Assembly: GCA_048939465.1 (NCBI GenBank)
Contig: JBHLPL010000029.1
Coordinates: forward strand, 1 to 19,061
Length of the DNA: 19,061 nt
Direction of reading: 5' to 3'
Source of the DNA: Promethearchaeota archaeon
GTDB lineage: Archaea > Asgardarchaeota > Odinarchaeia > Odinarchaeales > JBHLKK01
The first letter of the stretch is position 1. Each line of letters opens with the position of its first letter. Below are positions 284 to 17,552 of the stretch, piece by piece. A program made the translations under genes and the position numbers. The notes beneath the pieces were generated by a model. The model did no database searches. It had not been told where the DNA came from and saw only the letters and a list, made by a program, of their open reading frames with translations.

Positions 284-338
284 AATCCTATCTTATCGGT
301 ATTTTAAGTATCGAATCTCTCTAGAACATATGTTCTGA
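284..338 (+). repeat. Intergenic repeat copy 1 (tail B, palindromic)
   Basis: AATCCTATCTTATCGGTATTTT-AAGTATCGAAT-CTCTCTAGAACATATGTTCTGA. The palindrome AGAACATATGTTCT is at 323-336. Confidence 0.8.
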
Positions 339-392
339 CTTTAGGACCCCAAGGATTATGGATCTGGTCCAAACAGGAAAGCCTACCCTACC

Positions 393-707
393 TTAGACCC
401 AGCCTTCCTTTTTCAGTATGTTCATCGAGACTCTGTTGCTCGGCCCATCTCCTCTTGCAACGGAGACACCGACGTTCTCCCCAACAGCTTCCTTTATTTC
501 TGCGACATCTTTATGGGTGAATCCGGGGCAAAGAAGGATGGAATGTATGCCTTCCTCTTTCAGAAGTCTCTCTGATGCATTAATGGCTTCTGCTTGGCTT
601 TTTACAAGCCTTATGAATAGTCTGAACTTGGATGTTCCAACCTGCCACTTATGATTCTCAGGATCTGCATCCGGGGTGTGGGCGATGAAAGCTACCTTGA
701 ATACCAT
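393..707 (-). CDS. Small conserved hypothetical protein, DUF6506-like
   Basis: 104-aa ORF with an LLCPGF motif and C-terminal VARGDGPS. GAGGAG sits 9 nt upstream of the ATG at 707, so 707 is preferred over the TTG at 716. Family call is from memory. Confidence 0.7.
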   Translation of the reverse strand: MVFKVAFIAHTPDADPENHKWQVGTSKFRLFIRLVKSQAEAINASERLLKEEGIHSILLCPGFTHKDVAEIKEAVGENVGVSVARGDGPSNRVSMNILKKEGWV

Positions 708-790
708 ATTATTCAACTCCTCACGTGCTTTTTGGCTGCCATAGCCTTAATCTTACGGAATATTAAGGTCGCATCTGTTATAAGATTTCA

Positions 791-845
791 TGAAGAAGAT
801 TGAAGGTGTTTTGAAAATTGAATTCCTTCATAACATTTGCTCTAA
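791..845 (+). repeat. Intergenic repeat copy 2 (degenerate, tail B-like)
   Basis: GGTGTTTT-GAAAATTGAAT-TCCTTCATAACATTTGCTCTAA (805-845) has the same 41-nt spacing as copy 1. The left block has diverged. Confidence 0.55.
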
Positions 846-888
846 CAGAAGGGAATAGATCTAGAACATACTCTGATGTTATCACCTA

Positions 889-1836
889 CTAATAGTCAGA
901 AGCAGGAACAAAATCGCCCTGTTTTATCCTTCTTATTTCTTTCAGTTTCTCAACATACCTCTTAATAGACTCTATTTCAACAATTGAGCTCTTCTCTGCA
1001 GGAATCGAGAGTTGTTTAACCTCATAGCCTTTGTCCGCTATGTATTTTTTGGGAATCTCATATTCTATACCCAAATCTATGCACATCGATGGAGCCCAAA
1101 TCTTCGTCATTACTGCAGTTCCCATGTGGTGTATAAGACACTGAACTACTGAAACAGATAGCACCTTATCCAAGGGAATCTCCCAGTTCTCCTCTTTTTC
1201 CTCCTTCTTGTATCGGAACTTGAATTTTATCAACCTTTGAGATGTAACAAGTAGACCTCCATCTTCGGACGAGAAAATAATAGAGTAATGGACCCACTCA
1301 TCTGGACCAAGCAATTCCCTAGCCTCAACAGGTAGGGCCATTCTGAGTTTCTCTTGTTCAAGACAAAGTTCTACTCTTTGCTCATTAGGAACCCTGTAGT
1401 CACCTGAATCATCTTTTATTAGATACAGTCCGCAGTAATAGCATCGTAACTGCTCTTTTCCAGTAATAAAAGAACCACAGTAGGGACATCTATTGTGTTT
1501 TAAAAAATACGAGGCTTCTTCAACACCGAAATTCGCCTCAAAAGCCAACCTGATTCTCTCTTTTTCACGTTCCAGATACTCTGCTTCAAGTAAGGGCCCT
1601 TCTTTATCCCACCAAGCTTCGAATTCCTTCTCGTTCAGAGTGAGATAGACCTTCTTTCCCTTGATTTTGTCGATCATATTCCTGGGGAGTATGAATGATC
1701 CGCTTCGTCCAACATAATGGGAGGAAACCGTGGCAAGAATTTCATTTCCTAAAATCTCTCTGACCACACCTAGCTTCTTGTTATCAGAACTTCGGACTTC
1801 TGAATATTTCTCTGTTAACTTGGATATCTCATCCAT
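889..1836 (-). CDS. Hypothetical protein with a central zinc ribbon and a C-terminal bacterial PH-like domain
   Basis: CPYCG...CYYCG double CxxC, and GLLVTSQRLIKF...WEIPLDKVLSVSV, which resembles bPH domains. GGAGGGGG RBS precedes the ATG at 1836 (the ORF track starts at 1875). Confidence 0.75.
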   Translation of the reverse strand: MDEISKLTEKYSEVRSSDNKKLGVVREILGNEILATVSSHYVGRSGSFILPRNMIDKIKGKKVYLTLNEKEFEAWWDKEGPLLEAEYLEREKERIRLAFEANFGVEEASYFLKHNRCPYCGSFITGKEQLRCYYCGLYLIKDDSGDYRVPNEQRVELCLEQEKLRMALPVEARELLGPDEWVHYSIIFSSEDGGLLVTSQRLIKFKFRYKKEEKEENWEIPLDKVLSVSVVQCLIHHMGTAVMTKIWAPSMCIDLGIEYEIPKKYIADKGYEVKQLSIPAEKSSIVEIESIKRYVEKLKEIRRIKQGDFVPASDY

Positions 1837-1933
1837 CAAAATCCCCCTCCAGTAACTCCGTAAAGATAGTGACAAAACGATTTAATATAATTTGCCTTGC
1901 CAGAATCAGAAACGGCAATAGCCATACGATCAC

Positions 1934-1967
1934 AGATTCTCGTTTTTTTCGTTTTAATAATCTGAAT
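1934..1967 (+). repeat. Intergenic repeat copy 3 (partial/degenerate)
   Basis: GTTTT-AATAATCTGAAT (1951-1967) preceded by a T-rich block; no tail. It lies between divergent genes. Confidence 0.4.
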
Positions 1968-1975
1968 CATTTATA

Positions 1976-2425
1976 ATGCAGTGCAAGAATATTCAATTGA
2001 GTGGACAAGAAAGATTGTCCCTTAAGGCGATCAGAGTGTCTCCAAAATGCTCGTGGTGTGGAAAAAAGGGAGAGAATGTTATCCACGAAAAGTTGAGTTT
2101 CAGAGGGGCGGCTGAGGAAGCGTTTTTCTGTAATCTGGATCACTTAGAAAAAACACGAGAGTTCCTAAAATACGCCGAGTCTCATTTCTGGCATTTTATA
2201 ATGAGCATAATAGTACTTCCCGTTATTGGTATGTTAATTACATTTACGATCCTGGAAAATGTAGGTCTGCTAATTATCTTTGGAGGATTGGGTCTGACAA
2301 TCATAGTATTCCCATTTGCAACCCCCCAAACAAACAGTCTATTAGGATTCAAGAACGCAATTCGACTCATTAGAATAATCGGAGTGGCTTTAGCAGGTGC
2401 AGGGATAATTCTGCTTTTACTATGA
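1976..2425 (+). CDS. Membrane protein with an N-terminal TRASH/YHS-like metal-binding motif
   Basis: CSWCG...FFCNLDH followed by about 3 hydrophobic helices and FPFATPQT. The true start may be downstream. Confidence 0.7.
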   Translation: MQCKNIQLSGQERLSLKAIRVSPKCSWCGKKGENVIHEKLSFRGAAEEAFFCNLDHLEKTREFLKYAESHFWHFIMSIIVLPVIGMLITFTILENVGLLIIFGGLGLTIIVFPFATPQTNSLLGFKNAIRLIRIIGVALAGAGIILLLL

Positions 2426-2426
2426 C

Positions 2427-2472
2427 AATCTTTTTCGCGGCTTTTTTAGTGATGGCATGAAAACTGATTTGA
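2427..2472 (+). repeat. Intergenic repeat copy 4 (tail A)
   Basis: AATCTTTTTCGCGGCTTTTTT-AGTGATGGCAT-GAAAACTGATTTGA; begins 1 nt after the TGA at 2425. Confidence 0.65.
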
Positions 2473-2532
2473 TGTGGTTTTCCAGTAATCCTTATATCTC
2501 TGAAAAGGCTAATTCTTCCTCCGGGGAGAAAT

Positions 2533-3036
2533 ATGGCAGGATTTCGTTTTCATTATGCAGAGTTGCTCCTGTTATCCAGCACGATTATCGGAGTCCTCAT
2601 CCCCTTTTTCGGTCCTTTGACTGTATGTCTCCGTCTGGCTATATGGGATAGTTGGACTGTAATATCTGTTATGACACCTCTGACCATAATGAATATTCTT
2701 ATAGGGATTTCATGGCCCCCTCTCATTGCTGTAAGCATTACTAGGTTCCCCGAGGGACATTCAGAGCCAACCGCCCGACTAGGTCTGAGAAGACTGATAT
2801 ATTTTATTCTTCTGGTGGCCGCAATAATCCTCTTCTGGCCAGTACTTATCCGTGCATTACCAAACCTACCGGTTGGTACCAGATACATATATATACCTGA
2901 ATTCGAAGGGGGACTGATAAGGCCTTCGGCAGGAGTAAGCATAAGCTTGATCTATTTCTTCTATATCCTGATCGCTAACATCTCAGTCTGGAGTTTTGGA
3001 CATTTCAAAAGACTAAGAATAGCAAATCCTCCATAA
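2533..3036 (+). CDS. Hypothetical membrane protein (about 4 TM)
   Basis: 167-aa ORF, GGGGAG RBS, four hydrophobic segments. Confidence 0.75.
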   Translation: MAGFRFHYAELLLLSSTIIGVLIPFFGPLTVCLRLAIWDSWTVISVMTPLTIMNILIGISWPPLIAVSITRFPEGHSEPTARLGLRRLIYFILLVAAIILFWPVLIRALPNLPVGTRYIYIPEFEGGLIRPSAGVSISLIYFFYILIANISVWSFGHFKRLRIANPP

Positions 3037-3042
3037 AGAGAA

Positions 3043-3106
3043 AACCCTGTTTTGCGGGTGTTCTAATAACAGGATTTATTCCTGAACCTTTTGGAACACA
3101 TGTTAC
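3043..3106 (+). repeat. Intergenic repeat copy 5 (tail B-like)
   Basis: AACCCTGTTTTGCGGGTGTTCT-AATAACAGGAT-TTATTCCTGAAC..., followed by GAACACATGTTA at 3094-3105. Confidence 0.75.
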
Positions 3107-3241
3107 ATATGGCTAAACTCTTCTTTCGAGTGTTCCTTTTGGAACGGAAGACTTAAGTGTCTCACAGATTGGAGTACTTTATGAAGGAGTGATTCCTGCA
3201 CCAAGGCATATGTGCCAAATGACGGGGAGGGATATGGAAGG

Positions 3242-4036
3242 ATGGGGGAGAGTGAATTTACGGAAGGTGCTGTTAGTCAATTACTTTTCGTGATCGGTGC
3301 TGCTCTGACGATTATTGTCTCCCTCGTCGTACCTATTATTGCCCCAATTACTGGTCTTTATGAGACTTACATTGCTATTACATCAATCTTTGCATTGCGT
3401 CCAATAGATATTGACTGGCACTCTCCCTTAAGAGATCTTGATGGTCGACCATACTGGGCCAGCAAAATCCTTTTGCCATCAATTGTTGGAATTATCAATT
3501 CTGGGATTCTTCTTGTTTCGATCGTACTGTTAGTCAGGTCTGTCACTGGAGTGACTAAAAGATTCAATCCGAGCGATACGGGCAGGGCCACTACCAAATC
3601 CCTAATCGCTGTGGCCACTTTTGCAACAGTAATGGGCATGGTTTCTTCAGTGTTATTTCCCTCACTGATAATATATTCCTTCCGAGAGCATACAGGAGGA
3701 ATAATACCTGAAATGCCGCCTTTTAGTTACGATCTTAACATCATGGGCTGGGCTCTACTTATTCTTGAAGTGTTTTCCGGGGGACTAATGATACTGTTGG
3801 TCGGAATCCTATTTCTAGCGTATCGGAATTGCCTCGAGACCAACAGGCTCTGGTATGAAACCGGAATAATCTACATTCTAGCAGGGTTTTTCTTAATAGC
3901 TGGAACATTCTGTTTCTCTATGTTATTATCGCCCATCGGTTTGGTATTGACGATTATAGCCGGAATTGCTGGGACAGCGGGCTTTGCCATAACCAAAACC
4001 TCGACGGAGAAAGAATTAGAAGGCCTACAGATGTGA
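3242..4036 (+). CDS. Multi-pass membrane protein, DUF996/DUF973-like, paralog 1
   Basis: 5-6 TM segments; LVGILFLAYRN...LWYETGIIYILAG. The ATG at 3242 follows G-rich RBS-like sequence (the ORF track uses GTG 3212). Confidence 0.75.
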   Translation: MGESEFTEGAVSQLLFVIGAALTIIVSLVVPIIAPITGLYETYIAITSIFALRPIDIDWHSPLRDLDGRPYWASKILLPSIVGIINSGILLVSIVLLVRSVTGVTKRFNPSDTGRATTKSLIAVATFATVMGMVSSVLFPSLIIYSFREHTGGIIPEMPPFSYDLNIMGWALLILEVFSGGLMILLVGILFLAYRNCLETNRLWYETGIIYILAGFFLIAGTFCFSMLLSPIGLVLTIIAGIAGTAGFAITKTSTEKELEGLQM

Positions 4037-4058
4037 GAAAGATATCATAAGTAGCCAA

Positions 4059-4113
4059 GATCTTGTCTCTGTGCTATCTTAATGATTGGATTTCTCTCAG
4101 AACAAATGTTCCA
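4059..4113 (+). repeat. Intergenic repeat copy 6 (tail B)
   Basis: GATCTTGTCTCTGTGCTATCTT-AATGATTGGAT-TTCTCTCAGAACAAATGTTCCA; GAAC-N4-GTTC at 4100-4111. Confidence 0.75.
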
Positions 4114-4205
4114 GTATAGGAGGCATTTCGGTCCGATTTACCTTGGAAACATAGATTTAAATCGTTCAAAGTGATATTTATACACGATATTAAGGGGGAA
4201 GAACT

Positions 4206-5258
4206 ATGGATGGGGGACAACGTCTAGTCGGGCTACTAGGTCAAGTTCTCATTATAATCAGTGCTATCGTGACGATCATTTTTTCACTCGTAATGTTCTT
4301 TCCTATTCCACCCGATTCCCCCCTGCTATTCTCCATTATTCAAACACCGCCCTTTGGTCTCCCCATAATAGATTTTTACTACTATTATACCCCTTATTGG
4401 GACGTAGTAAGGGGCTGCAGTTTTAGGTATCCTGAAGAAGACTGGTTCAACTTGACTTCCGGATCTTCCTTCATCGGAATTCTTAATTCTTCGATCTTTT
4501 TCATTTCTATAATACTTGTGATAATCTCTGTTTACAGAACAGCCCAGGGATCAGGTGGGAATTCTGGAACCACAGTCAAAGCCAGAAATCTATTCATAGC
4601 TACTTTAACTTTTGCTTTATTCGCTTATTTCTTAAGTATCCTATCTCACGTGTTCTCGATGGGTATGGTTACTTATTCTTACGAACGTGTAGGATTCCTT
4701 GCAGGATTTCCAAAAGCATCATCGATCACCCATATTTACCTAAACAGTTTTGGCTGGATTCTCCTAATCTTACAGAACACTTTTGGAGTGATGATGATGG
4801 TTCTAGTTGGCGTATTCTTCAAAGCAATAGCCTCCGAAATACAAAAAAGCAGTCAACAAACCAGAAGGCTTTGGTCTGTTATAGGAAAAACATACGTAAT
4901 GTTAGGTGGAACAATAGCCTTCACTATTTTTATAACCCTTGCACAGGCAAACATGACATTCTTGGTGCCAATAATGCTAATTGTCTCAGGAGTTGTAGGA
5001 GCAACCGGCTTCATCAAATTCAAACCCACAATGTTCCCAATAATGACAGGCACGAGCGGATCTATGAGGAATACACCGGGATCGGTTATTGAAGCAGTCT
5101 ACGACACGGAGGCTTCATCAAAAGAAATTGAACTAGAAGTGCTTAAGAATGAAGGATACAAATTTGTGATAATCTCCGAAATCAAGTGTGTGAACTGCAG
5201 TTACGAGAATCCGATTGATGCTGAATTCTGCGTAAGATGCGGTCAGCGCTTGAAATAG
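4206..5258 (+). CDS. Multi-pass membrane protein, DUF996-like paralog 2, with a C-terminal double zinc ribbon
   Basis: AAGGGGG RBS; about 6 TM segments; LVGVFFKA...LWSVIGKTYVMLG; ends in CVNCSYENPIDAEFCVRCG. Confidence 0.8.
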   Translation: MDGGQRLVGLLGQVLIIISAIVTIIFSLVMFFPIPPDSPLLFSIIQTPPFGLPIIDFYYYYTPYWDVVRGCSFRYPEEDWFNLTSGSSFIGILNSSIFFISIILVIISVYRTAQGSGGNSGTTVKARNLFIATLTFALFAYFLSILSHVFSMGMVTYSYERVGFLAGFPKASSITHIYLNSFGWILLILQNTFGVMMMVLVGVFFKAIASEIQKSSQQTRRLWSVIGKTYVMLGGTIAFTIFITLAQANMTFLVPIMLIVSGVVGATGFIKFKPTMFPIMTGTSGSMRNTPGSVIEAVYDTEASSKEIELEVLKNEGYKFVIISEIKCVNCSYENPIDAEFCVRCGQRLK

Positions 5259-5275
5259 AATATAAGCTCTTATGA

Positions 5276-5326
5276 CATCTTATTTTGCTAGTGTTTTAAT
5301 AATCGGATGAAAATTAATCCAGAAGC
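5276..5326 (+). repeat. Intergenic repeat copy 7 (tail A)
   Basis: CATCTTATTTTGCTAGTGTTTT-AATAATCGGAT-GAAAATTAATCCAGAAGC. Confidence 0.85.
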
Positions 5327-5455
5327 TTTTCCCCTTGCTGCTATTAAGATAACTACTTAAATGAATCAGAATGATATTGCTCTTAGTTTGGCACGACGGG
5401 AGCAGCAAGAGCAAGATAAAGCCAAGAAACCCATTTCTAGTATTTTAGAAAACCC

Positions 5456-5932
5456 ATGCTTGGGAGAGTGAGGCGTTTGGTAACAGTCAGAAAAGCAAGA
5501 GTAGAGGATTTGGATGCCATAAACGAGCTGACCGACATAATGCACAGACATATGGCAAATCCCTACAGGTTAGAGTTGTCAAAGGAGGAGCTTGAAGAAG
5601 AACACTTCGGTGAAGGAGAGCTGGAGAATACATACGTCGCAGAGAGCGCAGGAAACGTTTTCGGATATATTTCGTTCTCTAAGGGAAAGAATGAGTGGGC
5701 GGGTCCCTACTATGAAATTGAGCATATTGTGGTCGCCGAAAAACACAGGAGGCAGCGTATCGGAAAAGGACTCTTCAACATCGTTCTTGAGAAAGCCAAA
5801 AGAGAGAAGGTAAACATCACAGCGGGGACGCTTGCGAAAAATCAGGGGGCGCTAAGATTCTATGAAGAACTCGGCTTCAAACCTCTGTCCATAGGCCTTC
5901 TGCTCGACATTCAGAAAAGGATACCAGAGTAG
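5456..5932 (+). CDS. GNAT family N-acetyltransferase
   Basis: Motif A IVVAEKHRRQRIGKGL and motif B NQGALRFYEELGF. The start may be the TTG at 5477. Confidence 0.9.
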   Translation: MLGRVRRLVTVRKARVEDLDAINELTDIMHRHMANPYRLELSKEELEEEHFGEGELENTYVAESAGNVFGYISFSKGKNEWAGPYYEIEHIVVAEKHRRQRIGKGLFNIVLEKAKREKVNITAGTLAKNQGALRFYEELGFKPLSIGLLLDIQKRIPE

Positions 5933-5973
5933 GGTGTGGAGTTTCACAGGTCCATATAATAATGAGCTGCCGA

Positions 5974-6024
5974 AATCTCTTTTTTGCTGGTGTTTTAGTA
6001 ATTGGATGAAAGCTATTTCAAGAC
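5974..6024 (+). repeat. Intergenic repeat copy 8 (tail A)
   Basis: AATCTCTTTTTTGCTGGTGTTTT-AGTAATTGGAT-GAAAGCTATTTCAAGAC; between convergent genes. Confidence 0.85.
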
Positions 6025-6080
6025 ATCATTTTCATTAACAGATGTTTTCAGGATCCCAGATGAAGAGAGACAATCGAATC

Positions 6081-6476
6081 TCAGTATCGAGCCACATCAT
6101 CTGTTACATCCAAGTCTCGACCGCACCTTATGCAAAAATCAGCATCCGCAGGGTTCTTGTAACCGCAATCAGGACATGAAAGCACAGCTGTTTCTGATCC
6201 AACATCTTCGGGTGTTGTTTCTTCACGATGGGTTGGGCTGGTGATGGAGTCAACCATAGGTTCAATTGCTTGCGTTCCTCTTGATGAAGACCAATAAATA
6301 CCGAAGACTGCCAAACCTGCAAGGACGAATAATATTAAGAACATGGAGACAATTAGGAAAATCCCCCCACGTAATCGCCCAATTCCCCCAAGTGCAAAAA
6401 ATGCCAATAGGAAGAGCACAAGTATGGCACAAATGGCACTGCTGCTCCTTTTATCGCGTGTACTCAGACTCCCCAT
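6081..6476 (-). CDS. Membrane protein (2 TM) with a C-terminal double zinc ribbon
   Basis: Two hydrophobic helices, an acidic linker and CPDCGYKNPADADFCIRCG. Confidence 0.85.
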   Translation of the reverse strand: MGSLSTRDKRSSSAICAILVLFLLAFFALGGIGRLRGGIFLIVSMFLILFVLAGLAVFGIYWSSSRGTQAIEPMVDSITSPTHREETTPEDVGSETAVLSCPDCGYKNPADADFCIRCGRDLDVTDDVARY

Positions 6477-6521
6477 CCCTCCATCAACTAACTACAGAAT
6501 TAGCACTAAAAAATCTTTGCA

Positions 6522-6554
6522 AATCTTGTTTTGCTGGTATTTTGATAATCGGAT
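6522..6554 (+). repeat. Intergenic repeat copy 9 (core only, no tail)
   Basis: AATCTTGTTTTGCTGGTATTTT-GATAATCGGAT. The last base is shared with the stop codon of the 6554-7060 gene. Confidence 0.85.
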
Positions 6555-7060
6555 TAGTCAATTACCACGAATGGTATCGGCTGCACTACCAAAGTGTATC
6601 CCTCTCCAAATAACCCGAAGGATGAACTACCGGTTACTGTATATGTGCCCGGCGTGCTTGGAGTCCAATTCAAGGTTTGCTGTGTTGACTGATAGGGACC
6701 GAGTGTGATATTAGACACATACATAAGATAACACGGATGATCCTGAGACCATTTGTAGATGATTGTGCCGTGGGCGTTTCTGATCAAAAAGTCAAAGAGA
6801 TCACTACATGGAAACCACAACTCAATTGCCCTTTCGGCAGTGTTTGTTAGAATGAAGGTTACACCCATAACCTCTCCTGCCGTATGCTGATTCGCAGCGA
6901 TCTCAACCCTTAAGCTTACAGGAGGGGCAAAAGTGGGTTCGGACCGAAGGTGTCGCCAAAGTATGTAGGCCACTGGGGGGGTGGCTACAATCACGATTAT
7001 TAGAGCCGCAATTCCTATCATTGTTCCCTTTTCCATTCCTATGGCCCTTCTGGAAGTCAT
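6554..7060 (-). CDS. Membrane-anchored BsuPI-like (intracellular proteinase inhibitor/Ig-like) domain protein
   Basis: N-terminal TM helix, then FDFLIRNAHGTIIYKWS...LGPYQS...LNW...PGTYTV, typical of BsuPI-like domains. The start may be the ATG at 7036. Confidence 0.7.
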   Translation of the reverse strand: MTSRRAIGMEKGTMIGIAALIIVIVATPPVAYILWRHLRSEPTFAPPVSLRVEIAANQHTAGEVMGVTFILTNTAERAIELWFPCSDLFDFLIRNAHGTIIYKWSQDHPCYLMYVSNITLGPYQSTQQTLNWTPSTPGTYTVTGSSSFGLFGEGYTLVVQPIPFVVID

Positions 7061-7149
7061 TTAAGTTAGGAGGCAATTCTGACAGAATTGATTTTTTTCT
7101 CCCTCTTCCCTCATATCATAGTTGATTTGATTCTATAAGAAGATTCAGA

Positions 7150-7189
7150 AATCTTGTCTTGTGGTGTTTCAACAATCGAATGAAAACTA
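7150..7189 (+). repeat. Intergenic repeat copy 10 (tail A, truncated)
   Basis: AATCTTGTCTTGTGGTGTTTC-AACAATCGAAT-GAAAACTA. The terminal CTA is the TAG stop of the 7187-7636 gene. Confidence 0.8.
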
Positions 7190-7636
7190 CAGGCCTTGCT
7201 CGATGCTGCGACCGCATCCTACGCAGAATCGTGCGTCACGCGGATTTACACAACCACAGTAAGAACACACGAGTTTAAAGGTAGAGACCGGTACGAATCG
7301 TCTTGCTCTTTTTCTACGTAGTAGTTTCCCTAAAGACTCCTTAACAGATTTTAGACGTCTATCAGAGTACGCCTTGACAGCCATTGATTCAGGAATTCTC
7401 TTCCGAAATTCTCTTATCTTCTTGACACAAAATCTTAATGCCAGGAATACTCCAGGAATCTCTGATCTCTTCTTTCCAGACCGCTTAATATATATAATTA
7501 GAAAATTCGCCATAGACACATAATTCCTGAGGCTTTCACGGGCAGCCCCTGCCTCCCATTCATAACCTAGCCCATCAAGGTATTTGGGTGTTTTGCGCCT
7601 TTTCAGTTCCATAATCCTTACCGTCTGGTTCTCCAT
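7187..7636 (-). CDS. Basic hypothetical protein with a C-terminal double zinc ribbon
   Basis: 149-aa Lys/Arg-rich ORF ending in CSYCGCVNPRDARFCVGCG. Confidence 0.75.
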   Translation of the reverse strand: MENQTVRIMELKRRKTPKYLDGLGYEWEAGAARESLRNYVSMANFLIIYIKRSGKKRSEIPGVFLALRFCVKKIREFRKRIPESMAVKAYSDRRLKSVKESLGKLLRRKRARRFVPVSTFKLVCSYCGCVNPRDARFCVGCGRSIEQGL

Positions 7637-10569: not shown

Positions 10570-11058
10570 TCATCCAATCTCTTCCTTCCCCAAGGAACTC
10601 CTCCTTCCATTTATCAAATAGGCCAGTACTATTACGTTCATAGCCGGCACAATCACATACAATAGGAGCTTTGCAGGTAGCGAGTTCGTCGAATAGAGAG
10701 GATAGAGTATTAAGCCTATTGTGCTGGAAGGAAATACCACCGCAATCGCTATCCAAAATCCTAAATAAGGGACCAATATCATTATTGCTTTATCCCATGC
10801 CCAGATAGGTCTCTTGATAAGACCGATACCTAACAAAATGATGCATATTCCCCAGATGACTGAAAAGACGTCATAGCCTAGAGTTATTTCAAGAGGTACA
10901 TAAGGGTACATGTGTCCTCCGCCTGCAGCAGCAAAGTCGAATAGTCCGGCAACGACTGACAGTGTGCCGGATGCTATCATAAATAGGCCCAGAATCAAAT
11001 TCAAAGATTCTGATCTCTTGGAATTGGAACTCAGCCGAGGCTCCCCCTCTTCATTCAT
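10570..11058 (-). CDS. Hypothetical membrane protein (about 4 TM)
   Basis: 162-aa ORF with four hydrophobic segments, including G.GL.KR..WAW. Confidence 0.8.
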   Translation of the reverse strand: MNEEGEPRLSSNSKRSESLNLILGLFMIASGTLSVVAGLFDFAAAGGGHMYPYVPLEITLGYDVFSVIWGICIILLGIGLIKRPIWAWDKAIMILVPYLGFWIAIAVVFPSSTIGLILYPLYSTNSLPAKLLLYVIVPAMNVIVLAYLINGRRSSLGKEEIG

Positions 11059-11087
11059 TTTGATTATTATTGCAGCTCAATAAAAAG

Positions 11088-11145
11088 AATATTGTTTTCG
11101 CTGGCTTTTTAATAATCGGGTTTTCTTCTAGAACATATGTTCTAA
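11088..11145 (+). repeat. Intergenic repeat copy 14 (tail B)
   Basis: AATATTGTTTTCGCTGGCTTTTT-AATAATCGGGT-TTTCTTCTAGAACATATGTTCTAA; 16-bp palindrome TAGAACATATGTTCTA at 11129-11144. Confidence 0.85.
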
Positions 11146-11219
11146 GGTTCAGATAGGACGAAGCAGCCTTTTAGAGTACGAAGTCCCTCAGGAAAACGTT
11201 GTTTGTAGCTCTGATCACG

Positions 11220-11822
11220 TTACCCCTTGGGTCTGCTTACAAAAAAGCACACCGTCCCTTCAATACTCCCAACCACAATGGCCACAAGACTAACTATCCA
11301 AAGAGCAATCTTGTACCAATCTAAGGAAATTATTAAGCAAGCCCAAGCAGAGTACGTTATCAAGTATGTTATTCCGGCAATCATATAGATTATTCCAGTG
11401 GTAATCCAAAATGGTTCATAAACGAAATACCTACGATATGCTAGGAAAAATATGCCAATTAAGGTCGCCGTTCCCCCTATGGTAACCGCTGGCATAATCA
11501 GAAACAGATAAAGATAATACCGCCAGATATTATAACCGACTATTGGGTATATGATTTGTGCAACTATATAGAGTACCAAGGCAATTGTGCCGGTAATTAA
11601 TCCGAATATTGCTCCAATCCTACCTATTGGTGAACCGCTGAATCTGCGAGATATTTCTCTGATTGAAATCAAGTACAGTATAGCGGAGATAAGAAAGACT
11701 ATTTGAGCGGCAATGCCGAACAACAATAGGAGTTCCCACATCCAAGAGAAGAACAACAAAAAAGCTGAAACCATAAGGAATATCTGACTGATGCCAGCCT
11801 GAAAAAGCTCTTTTTCAACCAA
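11220..11822 (-). CDS. Multi-pass membrane protein, DUF996-like paralog 3
   Basis: About 6 TM segments; LIGIFFLAYRR...FWITTGIIYMIAG; G-rich RBS before the TTG. Confidence 0.8.
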   Translation of the reverse strand: MVEKELFQAGISQIFLMVSAFLLFFSWMWELLLLFGIAAQIVFLISAILYLISIREISRRFSGSPIGRIGAIFGLITGTIALVLYIVAQIIYPIVGYNIWRYYLYLFLIMPAVTIGGTATLIGIFFLAYRRYFVYEPFWITTGIIYMIAGITYLITYSAWACLIISLDWYKIALWIVSLVAIVVGSIEGTVCFFVSRPKG

Positions 11823-12007
11823 CCTCCACTCCCCCTTTTGGCTTTTCAGATAATACGAGTTCTAAATAGTGGTAACGAAGTAGATTTGAATGCATGTAAT
11901 TAATAAGCCTTCTGATGTCGTTTAGTTGGAATCTTATTCCTTATCTTGGTCATGAATATTAATTAGATCAAAGACATGCACGAAATGCGGTCGAGCACCA
12001 CAGGAAA

Positions 12008-12063
12008 AATCTTGTTTTGCTGATGTTTTAGTAGTTTGATTTCTTTTAGAACATATGTTCTGA
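12008..12063 (+). repeat. Intergenic repeat copy 15 (tail B)
   Basis: AATCTTGTTTTGCTGATGTTTT-AGTAGTTTGAT-TTCTTTTAGAACATATGTTCTGA; between divergent genes. Confidence 0.9.
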
Positions 12064-12187
12064 TATTAGATTCGATTTGCCAAAATAAAACCTAAAGAGG
12101 GTTTGACGGGTCTAAATCGATCAGTATAAGAAATAATACGCTATTAATGAAATGTGTAGAAAAAGCTACACAAACGTGGTGTCACAG

Positions 12188-12658
12188 ATGATAATAAGAC
12201 GGATGGAAGATAAGGATTATGAGGCCTTCAAAGGCCTTTTTGAAGAGGCTTACGGTGAATACTTGAAATCCCTGAAAGAAAGAGACCCCCAGAAATATCA
12301 AAAAGAACTAAAAGAAGAAAGAAAAGTAACCCGCGAACGATTTGAATTTTACCTTGAAACCGGAAGCAGCTTCGTTGCCGAAGATGGTGAGGTTATCGGC
12401 TATGTGGTCAGTCAAACACTGAATTTTGTGCGCGGGTTTGACAGGTTGCTTTGGATTGAGTACGTAGTCGTTAAGAAGAAGCTTCGGAGACGAGGAATAG
12501 GGCTTGCACTTCTACGTAAGCTCACAGAATATGCCAGACGATCAAATGTAGATCGAATATATACAACAATTAATCCAGACAATGTGGCCTCCATAAGACT
12601 GCATCTGAAGGCCGGCTTTGATGTCAAGAACTGGAGAACTGCTTCTTACACAGCATAA
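12188..12658 (+). CDS. GNAT family N-acetyltransferase
   Basis: WIEYVVVKKKLRRRGIGLALL and NVASIRLHLKAGF. GTGGTG RBS favours the ATG at 12188 over 12152. Confidence 0.9.
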   Translation: MIIRRMEDKDYEAFKGLFEEAYGEYLKSLKERDPQKYQKELKEERKVTRERFEFYLETGSSFVAEDGEVIGYVVSQTLNFVRGFDRLLWIEYVVVKKKLRRRGIGLALLRKLTEYARRSNVDRIYTTINPDNVASIRLHLKAGFDVKNWRTASYTA

Positions 12659-12676
12659 TTTTGACAGCAGGAATCA

Positions 12677-12730
12677 AATCTTGTTCTGTCGGTGTTCTAA
12701 TTCTTGGATGAAAACTAATCTAAGAACTCA
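12677..12730 (+). repeat. Intergenic repeat copy 16 (tail A)
   Basis: AATCTTGTTCTGTCGGTGTTCT-AATTCTTGGAT-GAAAACTAATCTAAGAACTCA. Confidence 0.9.
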
Positions 12731-12733
12731 TAA

Positions 12734-12904
12734 TCAAGAAGAATGCCAAAAAGGTTCGTCTAGCCACGAACTCTCTTCTTCCTCATAACAATCAACACAT
12801 AGATCATCAAAAGCTATGCAGGCTGGGCAGACCGATCTTCCGCAGATCGAGCACTCTACCAGATCCTCTTCATCGCAATCTAGACCACAGATCTCACATT
12901 CCAA
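12734..12904 (-). CDS. 56-aa Cys-rich acidic zinc-finger-like small protein (not in the ORF track)
   Basis: AGGTGG RBS 7 nt upstream of TTG 12904; MECEICGLDCDEEDLVECSICGRSVCPACIAFDDLCVDCYEEEESSWLDEPFWHSS, with four CxxC pairs. It fills the gap between repeat copies 16 and 17. Confidence 0.8.
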   Translation of the reverse strand: MECEICGLDCDEEDLVECSICGRSVCPACIAFDDLCVDCYEEEESSWLDEPFWHSS

Positions 12905-12932
12905 GAATATTCCACCTTGTTACATGTATGTA

Positions 12933-12984
12933 ATGATTTGCACCGTGGAGTTTTAATGGTTTTCTTGTTGCCTAATCTAAGAGC
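12933..12984 (+). repeat. Intergenic repeat copy 17 (degenerate, tail A)
   Basis: GGAGTTTTAATG (from 12947) ... CTAATCTAAGAGC (12972-12984); spacing within 1 nt of the consensus. Confidence 0.55.
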
Positions 12985-13197
12985 GTTTCAAAAATGAAAT
13001 AAAACTGAGTAACAGACATTATCCCGAAGCAGCATCAGTTGGCTGTTTGTTATAAGAAGATAGTCGAAGATGAGGAATTGCTTAAGCTGAAGGAATTGCT
13101 CGTACAGAATCGGCCTTAGTGTGGAAAGAGGACCCAGAAAAGACCCCTATAACCAAACTCGAACATAAAGGAAAATGAGGGGGGAGGCAAAAAGATT

Positions 13198-15063
13198 TCA
13201 CTTCTTTGACAAGATAACGACTGATTCATATCTAATCATCCCTTCTCTTGTTTTCTCAAGTTCTCTTGTTATCACTCTATCCTTGGTAAGAGCTATATCC
13301 TCATCTTTAGCCATTTCCCAGATTACCTTGTCATTTTTTACCTCCACATAGTTCGAATCTAGCTTGTAATGATTATTTCCAATGATTATTACGCATTTGG
13401 CCTCTCTTTTCATCACCCTACTCATTTCTTTGAGAGTTAGACGTATATCTTTGAAGAATTTGTAAGTTCTCATGGCAGCGTTTCTCCTTCCACCATTCAA
13501 GAGATTAAGAATAATGGCCCTAGCAGTCTCAGGGAGCTGTTGAAAATCGTCCTTTCTCTTCTTAATTTCGTCTATCAATTCACGCGGGTAGTGTCTTAAG
13601 TTGGGATTTCCTACCATGTTTTCATGCAATTTCTCCAATGAAGGGACGAGATCAAGTAATGTAAGTTGAGGATAGTCATTTTTGATGTAGTCCAATGCCG
13701 TGGAGTATGGAGGAGAGTTAACTATAGCGTCAATCGTTTCTGTTTTTATTCCGATATCCTCATTATTCCATTTTTTGCAGCTGTTCCTCATGTCTCTTGT
13801 ATCGCCAATGTATGTTTCTGATTTTCCAAGACGAATCTTGAGAACCTCATTGAGTTTATGGAAAAGGTATATTCTTAGGTAAAGATTCCTGAGTCTTCCT
13901 TCTAAAACATCAACGAATTCTGCCCTTCTTCTTCTAGTTAAGTCGCTTATTGTCCCACTTAAGCCTAAAAGAAGGAAGTTCTTAATCTGTTCCTCAGGAA
14001 TTGATTTTGCTATTTCATGTGCAACAAGAATCTTTTTGATATCGCCCTCTTTGTAAAATAGCTTAATCATCTTATCAGGCATTTTTTTGCTTCGAGCAGT
14101 TATTTCTTTGTAGTTATACTCAGATTCTACAAGTAATGAATCTCCTTTAGATTGGCGTTCCAGACACAAGATAGCAGCGTTTACTCTCTTCAGGAAACTC
14201 TCTATTTTCCTCCGCAAGAGTGACGTATCCAAAAATAATGAATGACACTTTACATTTGACATCAAAACTGATAACGGGTTTATCTCGATTCCTATACTGT
14301 CTAGCCCCAAAAGTGAAGCTTCAACTAATAAAGTTCCGCTCCCCGCAAAATTGTCCATTATAAGACCTTGATCATTTGGAAAGACATAATTCAGTAGTGC
14401 TCGAACCATTTTTGGATGGAATTTTCCTTTATAGGGATGCATATAATGTGTAAGGTAAAGGGAGGGTTCCTCTCTAATGGCAAAATAGTCCTCAAGACGC
14501 TTTCCTATCGCCATTGTCGAGGACGCAGGAATCCTATAGAGTCTATTCGTTAAAAAATCAAAGAGTGAATTTACATTCCTATCAACTTCTTCTTCGTTCC
14601 TGCTCAGCTTTGAAATGTACTGTGATTTTTCAAGAAAGTATTGATGTACAATAAACCTGAAGAGGATGTGGTTCCCACTTTTGAAGTATTGCACATTTTT
14701 GCCCAGGATACCTTCCGGAAAAATCTTATTAAGCAGTCTCTCCGGGTCTTCGCTACTTTTTATTACTTGGAAGAACTCTCGAGTGTAAGCAAGCTTTCGT
14801 ACAAGGTTCGAGACATTTTGGATCTCCTCGGTTGTTCCATAAAATCCATGAAATTCTCCATAAGGCAGCTCATGTGTAAGAATGTCCTGAATACGTATAT
14901 TATCAGTTGTAAAAAGCTTAAGCGGCTCTTCATTCATTACATCTACGAAATTCCTTACTCTTCCTGTTTTACCAAACAGACTTGTTAGTTCTAGTTCAGC
15001 GAAATCTACTTCATGTTTCTCCTTTATACTGTTGGAAAGCTTGAAGTAATAATGGACGGCCAT
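13198..15063 (-). CDS. Amino-DNA methyltransferase, probably N4-cytosine, alpha motif order, with a long N-terminal extension
   Basis: HPYKGKFHP, motif I DNFAGSGTLLVEA and a later motif IV NSPPY. About 200 extra N-terminal residues. The start is ATG 15063 or TTG 15069. Confidence 0.85.
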   Translation of the reverse strand: MAVHYYFKLSNSIKEKHEVDFAELELTSLFGKTGRVRNFVDVMNEEPLKLFTTDNIRIQDILTHELPYGEFHGFYGTTEEIQNVSNLVRKLAYTREFFQVIKSSEDPERLLNKIFPEGILGKNVQYFKSGNHILFRFIVHQYFLEKSQYISKLSRNEEEVDRNVNSLFDFLTNRLYRIPASSTMAIGKRLEDYFAIREEPSLYLTHYMHPYKGKFHPKMVRALLNYVFPNDQGLIMDNFAGSGTLLVEASLLGLDSIGIEINPLSVLMSNVKCHSLFLDTSLLRRKIESFLKRVNAAILCLERQSKGDSLLVESEYNYKEITARSKKMPDKMIKLFYKEGDIKKILVAHEIAKSIPEEQIKNFLLLGLSGTISDLTRRRRAEFVDVLEGRLRNLYLRIYLFHKLNEVLKIRLGKSETYIGDTRDMRNSCKKWNNEDIGIKTETIDAIVNSPPYSTALDYIKNDYPQLTLLDLVPSLEKLHENMVGNPNLRHYPRELIDEIKKRKDDFQQLPETARAIILNLLNGGRRNAAMRTYKFFKDIRLTLKEMSRVMKREAKCVIIIGNNHYKLDSNYVEVKNDKVIWEMAKDEDIALTKDRVITRELEKTREGMIRYESVVILSKK

Positions 15064-15323
15064 TTCCAAGGTTCACCAAACAGCTCTTCCTGTTGAATCT
15101 CAACCCTTTTTACTCCTTATTTATGATGAAGAATATTTAAACACTGTTGAGCTAGCTAAAATAAGAATGATGTTTAATCGAAAAAGAGACCGATAGATTT
15201 GTGTTCCTATGACAGGCCTTCTCCGATTTTCTGCTTTATCAGCCGCGTCTTCGCTTGAAAGACCACCCTGCCGTTATCCTCGCATTGCCAGCACGGTTCT
15301 TTTTCCTAAGAATTGAAACCCAA

Positions 15324-16169
15324 TTAATCTTCGACAAATGAGTTTAGTCTTTTAGTTTGGCTCTTCATGGTCTCGGTTGTCTCACTCAGTAAGGGAAACG
15401 CCTCCAATGCCTTTTTCATACTTAACGCTGCGATTCCTGGAGGCGGTCTAGCAAATGACCCTGCAAATCTTGCTAATGATGCACGTTTGAGAAGTACCGC
15501 TGTCAAATGCGCAAATGTCAGAAGCGTATTCCGTCTGCCGTATGCTTGGTTTACGGTATCATAGCCCAGTGTGGAATATTTCACATCTTCATTCAACGCA
15601 ATTACATCCGTAAAATACAGGAGAACATCCAGCGGTATTTCTCCGACTTCAGGAACTAGCATTCTGATTCTGTCGATAACAACCGTCGGTGGACTGAGTC
15701 TCCATATCCCAGGTTCAGTTTCCTTGTGGTCGAGCATAAAGGCATTACGAACTAAGAGACTGCCCATCAGCTCTAATGCAAACTCGCTTTTCTTGCCCAT
15801 TTCCAACAAAAGGCCAAACATATCTTCAAAAGTAAGGCTTCGCCTAAGTCTGTTTTGACCGAGAAAAATCACAGGAAACATATCGTTTGGATTGTTTGTT
15901 TGTACGCCGTCTTTTGTGGTGCATTGTTTGTAATCTGGGGCGGCTTCTTTTCCCGGTTTTCCAAGACAAACCTTGTTTTCGCCAATAACATATAAGTTTT
16001 GATAGGTCTTTGAGGATTGACTGAGACCCTTTGGCCATGATTTGGCTTCTTCTATGCTCTGCTTTCTGCGTGGAGCAGAGAACTTATTCAGTCTGAGCTC
16101 AGATGGGATTTTAAGTGCGTCTCGTATCTTTCGCTTAATTAAATTGTTCGCGGGTTGCTCATTAATCAC
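15324..16169 (-). CDS. Hypothetical protein, putative restriction endonuclease partner of the methyltransferase
   Basis: 281-aa soluble ORF directly upstream of and co-oriented with the MTase, with no repeat between them; possible D-x-K in NEDVKY. Function is inferred from context only. Confidence 0.55.
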   Translation of the reverse strand: MINEQPANNLIKRKIRDALKIPSELRLNKFSAPRRKQSIEEAKSWPKGLSQSSKTYQNLYVIGENKVCLGKPGKEAAPDYKQCTTKDGVQTNNPNDMFPVIFLGQNRLRRSLTFEDMFGLLLEMGKKSEFALELMGSLLVRNAFMLDHKETEPGIWRLSPPTVVIDRIRMLVPEVGEIPLDVLLYFTDVIALNEDVKYSTLGYDTVNQAYGRRNTLLTFAHLTAVLLKRASLARFAGSFARPPPGIAALSMKKALEAFPLLSETTETMKSQTKRLNSFVED

Positions 16170-16268
16170 GACTCCCCCCCAACGTTTTTATTCCTTAAAC
16201 ACTAGTTTTGGTTGATGCCTGTAACTATGAGTTTTTCCTATATGAAACAAACTCTTTTAAAACAAAAG

Positions 16269-16323
16269 AATCTTATTTTGTGGCGTTTTAATACTTGGAT
16301 TTCTTTTAGAACGTATGTTCTAA
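16269..16323 (+). repeat. Intergenic repeat copy 18 (tail B)
   Basis: AATCTTATTTTGTGGCGTTTT-AATACTTGGAT-TTCTTTTAGAACGTATGTTCTAA; between divergent genes. Confidence 0.9.
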
Positions 16324-16505
16324 TGACTGAGACCCATTTTGCTTTCCAAATCCTCCGGTCCACAAACATCAAAATCGTTATAAACAGTTACAACAAAACA
16401 TCACGCCAGGGGGGGTTAGTGCCACCACATGCTGCCCCCTCTTCGTAGTTATCAGAAAGAAAAAATAACTCCGTTCTCCCATAATGAAATCAAGGGGGAC
16501 TCTCA

Positions 16506-17477
16506 ATGAAAGCTGTTGTTTACCGCGGGCCGAAAAAAATGAAACCTGAGGACGTACCGGAGCCTGAACCAGCTCAAAATGAGGTCTTGGTGAGGTTTAA
16601 GGCTGGCAGCATTTGTGGTACTGATATTCACTATTATAGAGGTGAGTGGAAGAGTCTAAAGATAGGAAGAATAATAGGGCATGATGCTTCGGGGCAGATT
16701 ATGGAGACGGCTCAAAGAGCGGCAATTGTCCCTTTTGTATCCTGTGGAGCCTGTAGATACTGCCTAGAGGGAAGACCCAATGTGTGTGAGAAATGGAGCA
16801 TAATGGGCTTCAACAGAGACGGATGCTTCTCTGAATTAATAGCAGTGCCGAGAGAGAATCTGCTTCCAATACCTAACAACGTCACTTACGAAGAGGCAGC
16901 GATACTTGAGCCAGTCGCCCTTGCGCTTCACACTTTTGACCTGCTTCAGCCAAGGTTTGGGCAATGGGCAACGATAGTGGGGCAAGGGCCCATAGGGCTT
17001 GTTATGACACAGGTAGCGAGAGCTTCAGGGTGCAGAGTCATTGCTATAGATTTAGAAGATTACCGATTAGCAATATCTGAGAATTATGGAGCAGAGGTAT
17101 GCATTAATCCAAAGAGTCAGAACGTTGTGGAAAAAGTGAGAACGATTACCGACGGGGGCTCGGGCATCGTTGTTGAAGCCGCCGGCAAAAAGGAAACTGT
17201 AGAACAGACTTCCAAATTAGTGAGTCGGACAGGAAAAGTAGCGCTGGTAGGTGAATCTTCAGGCACAATGAAATTCGAAGGTGAAGCGACTTTCTTCGGC
17301 GTATGGCTTAATCCCCTGAAATATGCTCTTGCGCTGGATTCGCTGTCAAAGGGAATCATAGATGTTAGAGGTTTGATTACTCATAGATTTCCTCTGACTG
17401 ATTTCGAGAGGGCGATTGAGACAGCCACCGACACTGAAAAGAGTCCTGTAAAGGTGATTCTTCAAGAGGAGCATTAG
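16506..17477 (+). CDS. Zinc-dependent medium-chain alcohol dehydrogenase (threonine/sorbitol dehydrogenase-like)
   Basis: ICGTD, GHD, structural Zn site CGACRYCLEGRPNVC, LEP and Rossmann GQGPIG; AAGGGGG RBS. Confidence 0.93.
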   Translation: MKAVVYRGPKKMKPEDVPEPEPAQNEVLVRFKAGSICGTDIHYYRGEWKSLKIGRIIGHDASGQIMETAQRAAIVPFVSCGACRYCLEGRPNVCEKWSIMGFNRDGCFSELIAVPRENLLPIPNNVTYEEAAILEPVALALHTFDLLQPRFGQWATIVGQGPIGLVMTQVARASGCRVIAIDLEDYRLAISENYGAEVCINPKSQNVVEKVRTITDGGSGIVVEAAGKKETVEQTSKLVSRTGKVALVGESSGTMKFEGEATFFGVWLNPLKYALALDSLSKGIIDVRGLITHRFPLTDFERAIETATDTEKSPVKVILQEEH

Positions 17478-17498
17478 TCAAAACCAAGAATCTTGAAG

Positions 17499-17552
17499 AA
17501 TCTTGTTTTGCTGGTGTCTTAATAAATGGATAAAAACTGATCTAGGAACTCA
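17499..17552 (+). repeat. Intergenic repeat copy 19 (tail A)
   Basis: AATCTTGTTTTGCTGGTGTCTT-AATAAATGGAT-AAAAACTGATCTAGGAACTCA; preceded by the tandem AAGAATCTTG x2 (17486-17505). Confidence 0.9.

Follow-up and report, generated by a model that had tools for sequence, protein, structure and literature searches.

Integrons are the textbook system for the capture of genes as cassettes, and their cassettes are mostly co-oriented, promoterless and expressed from Pc; to our knowledge, only classical attC integrons have been reported in archaea so far. Integrative mobile elements exploiting Xer (IMEX), such as CTX/TLC in Vibrio, are integrase-less elements that stand in tandem at a chromosomal dif site and use the host Xer. 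Here, we analyse an array of cassette-like units delimited by a 34-bp repeat in a 19,061-nt stretch of DNA (the window), which is the entire contig C58 of a genome of Promethearchaeota archaeon (G000), and compare it with such systems. Archaeal integrons carry co-oriented open reading frames (ORFs) with attC hairpins, and integrons are present in ~8% of Asgard genomes, mostly as arrays without a nearby integrase (CALINs) (Ghaly et al. 2022, PMC9668308). The pdif sites of Acinetobacter plasmids alternate in orientation (C/D, D/C), and the modules between them are excised in pairs (PMC13141974). Among the other mobile elements of Asgard archaea, Aloposons carry giant genes and target tRNA genes (PMC8813620), and those of Atabeyarchaeia are plasmids, viruses and integrative and conjugative elements (PMC11529989); repeat-delimited cassette arrays are described in neither of the two papers.

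In our view, the window rather likely belongs to a large gene-cassette array on the chromosome, the units of which are moved by site-specific recombination at the 34-bp site. G000 is a metagenome-assembled genome (MAG) of 1.96 Mb in 152 contigs (91% complete) and, together with the MAGs G001 (78% complete) and G002 (82%), represents the genus of the window; four genomes of a sister genus (93-98% complete) were used for comparison. The archaeal host proposed in an earlier note, made from the letters of the window alone, agrees with the source of the window, an Asgard archaeon, and a congener with the same repeat has been deposited as 'Candidatus Hodarchaeota archaeon'.

The core repeat and its distribution

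The earlier note described 19 same-strand copies of a core repeat separating 18 units. A strict 22-mer search allowing up to 3 mismatches found 5 copies in the window compared to 0 in 200 shuffles, and a profile hidden Markov model (HMM) made from the core copies and run with nhmmer recovered 15 of the 19 copies at E values from 1e-9 to 0.02. On inspection, all 19 positions proved to belong to a real but degenerate family. The four decayed copies (791, 2427, 9428 and 12933) are below the HMM threshold; those at 791 and 2427 match exactly the positions of canonical copies at orthologous units of the congeners, and at 9428 and 12933, the right half is still present, along with the type-B flank described below. 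The coordinates hold to within 2 nt and so does the shared strand. The totals had to be raised to 20 sites, all on the + strand, and ~20 units, with a left-half-only copy at 17556-17580 that bounds an empty unit of 58 nt. The sites are as follows:

284-316, + strand: core copy 1; type-A flank with palindrome at 323-336; nhmmer E 1e-4
791-823, + strand: core copy 2; decayed, GGTGTTTTGAAAATTGAAT kept, below the HMM threshold; the orthologous G001 unit L022.u3 ends in a canonical core
1934-1966, + strand: core copy 3; partly decayed; nhmmer E 0.018; orthologous G001 and G002 junctions canonical
2427-2452, + strand: core copy 4; left half decayed; aligns base by base with the canonical G001 and G002 copies at the right end of the same unit
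3043-3075, + strand: core copy 5; nhmmer E 2e-8
4059-4091, + strand: core copy 6; type A; nhmmer E 1e-5
5276-5308, + strand: core copy 7; dyad 6/8; nhmmer E 1.5e-8
5974-6007, + strand: core copy 8; nhmmer E 2e-7; metagenome contigs diverge at 6005
6522-6554, + strand: core copy 9; nhmmer E 5.5e-9; abutted by the stop codon of the minus-strand gene 6554-7060; joint 6513 to 12705 in metagenome X4
7150-7181, + strand: core copy 10; nhmmer E 2e-7
7801-7833, + strand: core copy 11; nhmmer E 1.5e-7
9428-9460, + strand: core copy 12; left half decayed, right half and type-B flank kept in the sequence
10355-10387, + strand: core copy 13; nhmmer E 1e-9; left breakpoint of the unit replacement in X7
11088-11121, + strand: core copy 14; type A; nhmmer E 9e-6; right breakpoint of the replacement in X7
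12008-12040, + strand: core copy 15; type A; nhmmer E 1e-6; followed by other units in X3, X4 and X7
12677-12709, + strand: core copy 16; type B, dyad 6/8; nhmmer E 1.4e-7
12933-12965, + strand: core copy 17; decayed; type-B flank CTAATCTAAGAGC perfect at 12972
16269-16300, + strand: core copy 18; type A; nhmmer E 2e-7
17499-17531, + strand: core copy 19; type B, dyad 6/8; nhmmer E 1e-8; metagenome contigs diverge at 17531
17556-17580, + strand: core copy 20, left half, absent from the earlier note; aligned with canonical G001 and G002 copies; closes the 58-nt empty unit and abuts the radical-SAM unit

Across 42 anchored copies from the three genomes, the conserved block measures 34 nt (AAATCTTGTTTTGCTGGTGTTTTAATAATTGGAT) and includes 12 near-invariant positions. 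Its left edge is sharp, with the information content dropping to zero directly left of the block. The left flank was rejected as a part of the site: its apparent conservation (CTAAAAAATCTTTGCA) is due to paralogous zinc-ribbon units, and information is zero left of -15. The right flank falls into classes that the earlier note does not mention, namely type A (18 of the 42 copies), in which TTCTTTT is followed by the palindrome AGAACATATGTTCT, type B (ATGAAAACTAATCTAAGAG), which was found only after cores, and copies fitting neither. An Rfam scan of the window gave no match at E up to 1.

The type-A palindrome, in its 18-bp form (TTAGAACATATGTTCTAA), is present in 16 perfect copies on 13 G000 contigs compared to ~0.01 expected. 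Within the window, it is located at 323-336, 4099-4112, 11130-11143, 12048-12061 and 16308-16321, and elsewhere in G000 on C2, C16, C23, C31, C71, C78, C91, C93, C135, C138, C139 and C149; 21 of 23 copies are intergenic, lying near 5' ends, near 3' ends or between convergent genes. Being a genome-wide intergenic element, it was rejected as a part of the site, and it was also rejected as a promoter of the units because the gene that comes next points either way about equally often (8 versus 9). The palindrome does not depend on the array core and probably acts as a boundary element or a binding site.

The core is lineage-specific and clustered in arrays, not genome-wide. There are ~22 matches in the 1.96 Mb of G000, of which 15 lie on C58 and the others on the small array contigs C103, C144 and C147; weak copies are found on C74, C131 and C38, and the profile search did not find the core in ordinary intergenic regions of this genome. 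An even spread of the motif through the genome, which according to the earlier note would speak against a capture array, is not what is seen. The array itself runs on from the window to C103, with one G001 contig spanning the last window unit and the start of C103. The profile model yielded 22, 29 and 12 matches in the three genomes of the genus compared to 0 in the four sister-genus genomes, and a pattern search of 41 relatives found the core only in the same three genomes. Public genome and metagenome collections returned only contigs of the congener, one chance match and one short contig.

On the 10 contigs with multiple copies, all 48 of 48 copies share the strand within the contig (chance 2^-38). 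The ORFs adjacent to cores are oriented both ways relative to the site (18 plus, 29-30 minus), as are the genes of the window (10 on the + strand, 13-14 on the - strand), in agreement with the near-even strand split reported earlier. These observations bear on the main rival explanation, which we consider unlikely, namely, that the core is a conserved intergenic element (a terminator serving + strand genes plus TATA-like box, an insulator or a protein-binding site) and that units are shuffled by ordinary homologous or short-homology recombination at it rather than by a dedicated recombinase. Such an element would fit the positions of plus-strand genes, the ends of which precede the T-rich left half by a median of 20 nt, the two T-runs and the A/T-rich, TATA-like TTTTAATAAT of the core, and the presence in many units of the genome-wide palindrome, which places general intergenic signals within the flanks. 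A transcription signal, however, should track the genes, whereas the cores are co-oriented and the genes are not, and the core is absent from the other intergenic regions of the genome.

The repeat is also short, intergenic and lineage-specific, as would be expected of a selfish repeat resembling repetitive extragenic palindromes (REP) or miniature inverted-repeat transposable elements (MITE) and inserted between pre-existing neighbour genes. This possibility appears quite improbable, given that the repeat is not dispersed, has neither terminal inverted repeats nor a hairpin and keeps a single orientation. Furthermore, the neighbourhoods are not ancestral, with units moving between contexts together with their half-sites (see below), and no RAYT was found, the single Y1 transposase belonging to an IS605 element with TnpB.

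Finally, in agreement with the earlier note, the sites are not attC sites. There are 0 RYYYAAC...GTTRRRY box pairs on either strand of the window compared to 1-6 in shuffles; the 19 junctions fold, on both strands, with dG of -4 to -12 kcal/mol and z mostly 0 to -2, no better than shuffles; and RNAalifold, run on either strand of 20 aligned copies with parameters for DNA as well as for RNA, returned an open chain with no consensus structure. The best match to the integron integrase model TIGR02249 scored 76 bits against a cut-off of 265 in these incomplete MAGs. Without attC and without IntI, the array is no integron. The occurrence of CALINs in Asgard genomes (PMC9668308) and the integron-like types of cargo would be compatible with a classical integron array of this kind with divergent attC sites, but besides the lack of boxes, fold and IntI, the genes are not co-oriented and the site is conserved as sequence rather than structure, which makes this explanation highly improbable.

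Units, their exchange and their cargo

The array contigs were cut after TTTTAAT, and the resulting units were compared between genomes. Each unit opens with the right part of the site, AATTGGAT and the flank, and closes with the left part, AAATCTTGTTTTGCTGGTGTTTTAAT; the site is split such that ~25 nt lie at the right end of a unit and at least 8 nt plus flank at the left end. The units hold one gene or a small module, in either orientation and with their own expression signals; with genes in both orientations, own promoters are needed. The window comprises the following units (identities are to the homologous units in the congeners):

309-816, - strand: u1, DUF6506 protein (393-716), Pfam E 6e-22; whole unit 80% to G001 L022.u3, with other neighbours
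817-1960, - strand: u2, 328-aa zinc-ribbon/DUF2171 protein (889-1875); 67% to G001 L023.u2
1961-2452, + strand: u3, 149-aa ORF (1976-2425), no family; 83-84% to G001 and G002
2453-3067, + strand: u4, 167-aa ORF (2533-3036); 78% to G001 L027.u2, located there after the u15 homologue
3068-4083, + strand: u5, 274-aa membrane protein (3212-4036)
4084-5300, + strand: u6, 350-aa protein with C-terminal zinc ribbon (4206-5258); 80% to G001 L028.u1
5301-5998, + strand: u7, GNAT acetyltransferase (5456-5932)
5999-6546, - strand: u8, 131-aa zinc-ribbon membrane protein (6081-6476); commonest unit family, genus-confined
6547-7174, - strand: u9, BsuPI-like protease inhibitor (6554-7060); end-to-end paralogue C103.u1, followed by a different flank class
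7175-7825, - strand: u10, 149-aa zinc-ribbon protein (7187-7636)
7826-9453, mixed strands: u11, nitroreductase (7937-8515, -), PadR (8587-8919, +) and GNAT (8971-9411, +); block kept at 84% in G001
9454-10379, + strand: u12, dienelactone hydrolase (9610-10263); nearest named relatives are Thorarchaeota proteins, 69-79%
10380-11112, - strand: u13, 162-aa ORF (10570-11058) and 55-aa ORF; in X7, a 1.5 kb insert takes its place
11113-12032, - strand: u14, 200-aa ORF (11220-11822)
12033-12701, + strand: u15, GNAT acetyltransferase (12152-12658); 84% to G001 L027.u1, with the common private core variant GTTCTGT
12702-12958, - strand: u16, 56-aa ORF (12734-12904)
12959-16293, - strand: u17, two-gene module of a 623-aa DNA methylase (13198-15069) and a 281-aa ORF (15324-16169)
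16294-17523, + strand: u18, zinc alcohol dehydrogenase (16506-17477)
17524-17581, + strand: u19, empty 58-nt unit, a right half-site with type-B flank followed by a left half-site
17582-19061, - strand: u20, radical SAM (17605-18552) and, truncated where the contig ends, a 341-aa membrane protein (18556-19061)

Ten window units recur in G001 or G002 with 67-88% identity, over approximately the whole length and in the same orientation to the core, and their neighbours differ between the genomes; for whole units shared among the congeners, identities range over 67-91%. In the clearest case, u3 and the radical-SAM unit are immediate neighbours in G001 as well as in G002, and 15 kb of other units lie between the two in the window. 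In a four-way alignment of this junction, the homology of u3 ends with ...GGTGTTTTAAT and that of the radical-SAM unit starts with GGTGTCTTAAT|CTCTT, with GGTGTTTTAAT being the sole sequence common to the partners. Variants of the left half of the core are inherited with the upstream unit, such as GTTCTGT of u15 and its G001 orthologue, and AATYGGAT variants go, together with the flank, with the downstream unit, such as AATCTG-AATCATTTATA of u3 in all three genomes. Because the half-core variants track the upstream and downstream units, the exchange point can be bracketed to approximately -9..+5 around TTTTAAT|AATTGG (...GGTGTTTTAAT|AATTGG...); the breakpoints map to about 10 bp of the core. 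Outside the arrays, synteny is ordinary, as exemplified by 12 kb of G001:C43 and G000:C46 that are collinear at 83%. Gene order across the window, the conservation of which the earlier note had likewise named as speaking against its idea, is not conserved in relatives: units have been gained by insertion, lost, replaced and reordered as whole blocks, and the breakpoints, like the exchange point, fall inside the repeat. Short-homology recombination at a conserved intergenic element would leave unexplained the same two half-sites on unrelated genes and the 58-nt empty unit.

Additional evidence comes from contigs of the public metagenomes of other studies (X-numbered), which were aligned on the window. 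In X7, u13 is swapped for 1498 nt of other DNA, with a joint from 10361 to 11122 and both breakpoints in cores. In X4, u8 is joined to u16 via a variant core, skipping 6.2 kb (6513 to 12705), and in X3, X4 and X7, it is u5 or u6 rather than u15 that comes after the core at 12008 (joints 12045 to 3130 and 12061 to 4117). The points at which contigs diverge from the window (277, 6005, 12041 and 17531) are all at cores. Three joints lie off the cores (46 to 2307, 226 to 3114 and 3223 to 4195), and the second of these, with 9 inserted letters, was seen in two studies. One further join, from 17520 to 16293, would link u18 to itself, right end to left end; known from a side table only, it is ambiguous, another unit with a similar half-site being equally possible.

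Many of the metagenome contigs match the window over its junctions at a large number of cores, with 0-5 differences (among them 735-3158, 6489-7780, 8848-10671 and 10285-12552), which argues against mis-assembly. It is true that the MAG is fragmented into 152 contigs and that repeats break assemblies, but the separately assembled congeners have the same architecture and the cores differ from each other, making them poor substrates for k-mer mis-joins. We therefore find it barely credible that the window is a chimeric contig joined via its repeats.

Another array, on C74 and G001:C6, is marked by a longer repeat variant of ~146 nt, which consists of a core variant, a type-B-like flank and 70 further conserved nt. 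This variant is located at C74:16004-16150 and C4:10554-10675 in G000 and at 19588, 18261, 14650 and 8998 of G001:C6 (L042/L043), with partial copies at 15609 and 3138, and lies directly after the stop codons of opposite-strand genes. G001 differs from G000 by a 2.5 kb insertion exactly at one of the copies. The flanks of this array are ordinary chromosome, with DNA polymerase B (PolB) and metabolic genes.

The cargo is accessory and defence-like. Pfam bears out the GNATs, the nitroreductase/PadR/GNAT module, the DNA methylase, the hydrolase and the membrane proteins named in the earlier note; its 'ArsN2-like' protein turned out to be a generic GNAT only, and its 'endonuclease-like' 281-aa ORF is without a family. 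Contigs of the sister arrays carry TIR-TPR, methylase plus HerA plus GIY-YIG, ParB-DUF488, Cas4-like and ABC-transporter modules: C147 (L004, 1-6358) of G000 includes a DNA methylase with a Dev_Cell_Death domain, a HerA-type ATPase and a GIY-YIG/DUF6884 protein, and G001:C50 (L023) includes a TIR-TPR protein (344-2476) and a ParB_N-DUF488 protein (7327-8751). The zinc-ribbon unit family has only 10 members, mostly on short contigs, and is confined to this genus. For the proteins at the edges of the window, no public record was found that would extend the context. Zinc-ribbon tails are present in at least five window proteins, and an inverted repeat of 49 nt (78% complementary; window 5196-5244 and 6119-6167) corresponds to similar C-terminal zinc-ribbon coding sequence in two opposed unit genes. 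The u12 hydrolase has no counterpart on the fetched array contigs of the congeners, which, together with its similarity to Thorarchaeota proteins, suggests a recent lateral exchange between Asgard classes. The contexts of close cargo homologues in other lineages contain neither the core nor a comparable repeat. Radical-SAM genes were considered as array boundaries and rejected, since they are units themselves.

The crossover region and candidate enzymes

As a duplex, the crossover region reads GTTTTAAT-AATTGG-ATGAAAAC in about half of the copies, with inverted arms of 8 bp on either side of a 6-bp spacer. Xer/dif-type sites have two inverted arms of 11 bp with such a spacer between them. When 585 combinations of position and spacer length were scanned for dyads in the 24 non-A copies, the 6-bp spacer at AATTGG ranked top, matching at 4.4 of 8 positions (background 2.1 +/- 0.6); typical type-B copies score 5-7/8. 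The unit boundary coincides with the junction between the arm (8-11 bp, GGTGTTTTAAT) and the spacer AATTGG. Tyrosine recombinases cut at the arm/spacer junction. For the conserved-intergenic-element explanation, the narrowness of the exchange interval and its position on a dyad with a 6-bp spacer are difficulties. The dif site of P. abyssi has only ATTGGAT in common with the core, and the dif-like candidates in the sister genus are single palindromic matches in unrelated, non-orthologous contexts, which we attribute to chance.

The families PF00589, PF00239, PF01797, PF07282, PF01548 and PF00665 were searched in the three genomes, with no cognate recombinase found. G000 has two tyrosine recombinases, one abutting a tRNA gene and the other absent from the congeners save for a 35-nt att-like match; both were rejected as ordinary integrases of integrative elements, and PF00589 was not found in G001 and G002. 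One tRNA-associated integrative element of G000 carries a 357-aa integrase beside a tRNA gene (C43:1-1172, L008), and a second ordinary element of this type, on an unrelated metagenome contig (L074:4568-6991), has an integrase gene that begins within a repeat of the 3' end of a tRNA gene. In G000 only, there are also one large serine recombinase and one IS200 TnpA, neither family being detected in G001 and G002, and the IS110 and rve families are absent from the genomes searched. The TnpB genes, of which there are 6-8 copies per genome in this genus, belong to ordinary insertion sequences and were also rejected; one TnpB-only insertion sequence of 1.24 kb (G001:C109, L081, 603-1847) is missing at the orthologous position 9527/9528 of G000:C131. 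The larger ORFs on the array contigs of the three genomes are all cargo, and two unit proteins tested as cryptic recombinases both look like membrane proteins. No integrase was found at the candidate array edges (C74/G001:C6 and C131) either: C6 is bordered by the polymerase and metabolic genes mentioned above, and C131 consists of modular cargo. A 339-aa tyrosine recombinase of the sister genus is a weak match only (23-24% identity).

The clustering in arrays next to a recombinase that, according to the earlier note, would support its idea is seen in its first part only, the cores being clustered and no recombinase adjoining any array. Several points weigh against site-specific recombination. 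No recombinase lies beside any array or is common to the three genomes, for which the explanation by a conserved intergenic element accounts, and no protein of these genomes, which are 91, 78 and 82% complete, reached the XerA model cut-off of 220 bits (scores of 123 and 79 bits). The dyad is modest, was spotted before being tested and is missing in the 18 type-A copies, and the spacers differ among copies, which would restrict recombination between many pairs of sites. Edges of non-homology fall at unit boundaries under any mechanism of exchange, short-homology recombination included, and for this reason shuffling alone is no proof of site-specific chemistry. No unambiguous circular unit or junction was found among the metagenome contigs. 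All genomes are fragmented MAGs, and the metagenome evidence consists of de Bruijn contigs. For the earlier claim that the array was built by a site-specific recombinase, there is, with neither an enzyme nor an unambiguous circle seen, no direct evidence.

Either a canonical XerA is lacking in this genus or its gene falls in a part of the genome that does not assemble. Because repeats break assemblies, we conjecture that an array-adjacent recombinase gene could be systematically lost from MAGs. Under the site-specific recombination that we favour, units would move conservatively between duplex sites, being excised as circles and reinserted at any other site; this would keep all sites co-oriented whatever the direction of the cargo genes. 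The enzyme might, more tentatively, be a Xer-type tyrosine recombinase acting in trans, as the exchange point matches the arm/spacer junction and the inverted arm ATGAAAAC is present in about half of the copies.

The arrays may well represent an undescribed gene-capture platform, in which dozens of self-expressed cassettes, making up perhaps several percent of the genome and including defence modules and genes exchanged with other Asgard lineages, are handled by a recombinase that acts on a 34-bp duplex site independently of IntI and of attC folding. If so, gene capture in cassette arrays would have evolved more than once, here with a different site, no IntI and no constraint on orientation. 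The setting is the Asgard archaea, the closest prokaryotic relatives of eukaryotes, in which the routes of gene influx are much debated. The array also offers a pool of small accessory and defence genes with easily delimited boundaries, and the 34-bp site with its defined crossover interval would be directly testable once the recombinase is known.

Comparison with integrons, dif modules and other elements

Like integrons and CALINs (PMC9668308), the array is long and consists mostly of single-gene units, with a site that is split between unit ends. Similarities further include the shuffling, gain and loss of units between strains, the crossover inside the site, the accessory and defence-like cargo and genes that end near the site, and Asgard archaea are known hosts of integrons. 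Unlike in integrons, the site is a duplex of 34 bp conserved in sequence, whereas attC sites are structured, measure 55-140 nt and contain R''/R' boxes; IntI is lacking, and genes occur in both orientations, so that the ORFs of the array do not fit the co-oriented, promoterless cassettes expressed from Pc. Moreover, an integron cassette starts with 6 nt of the site, and a unit of the array with at least 8 nt plus flank.

The dif modules of Acinetobacter plasmids (XerC/XerD-dependent, PMC13141974) share with the array cargo in either direction, short duplex sites with a 6-bp spacer (a putative one in the array), spacers that vary between sites and the replacement of single modules between relatives. 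Their recombinase acts in trans and is not encoded beside the modules, and none was found beside the units of the array. The sites of the array, however, are all direct (48/48), whereas pdif sites must alternate; about half of them are without a second arm, no Xer protein was detected, and the context is chromosomal and archaeal. Beyond ATTGGAT, the arms resemble neither the bacterial nor the P. abyssi dif.

IMEX resemble the array in tandem accretion and in the direct, dif-like sites between elements, and differ from it in being few, kilobase-scale phages or islands at a single chromosomal dif, compared to dozens of single-gene units in several arrays. Aloposons and other mobile elements of Asgard archaea have the host group in common with the array, and Aloposons, considered as its possible identity, are unrelated. 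Literature searches of open-access papers found no description of such arrays, in line with the earlier suggestion that they are possibly undescribed. Integrons come closest to the array, together with the dif modules that depend on Xer in Acinetobacter plasmids.

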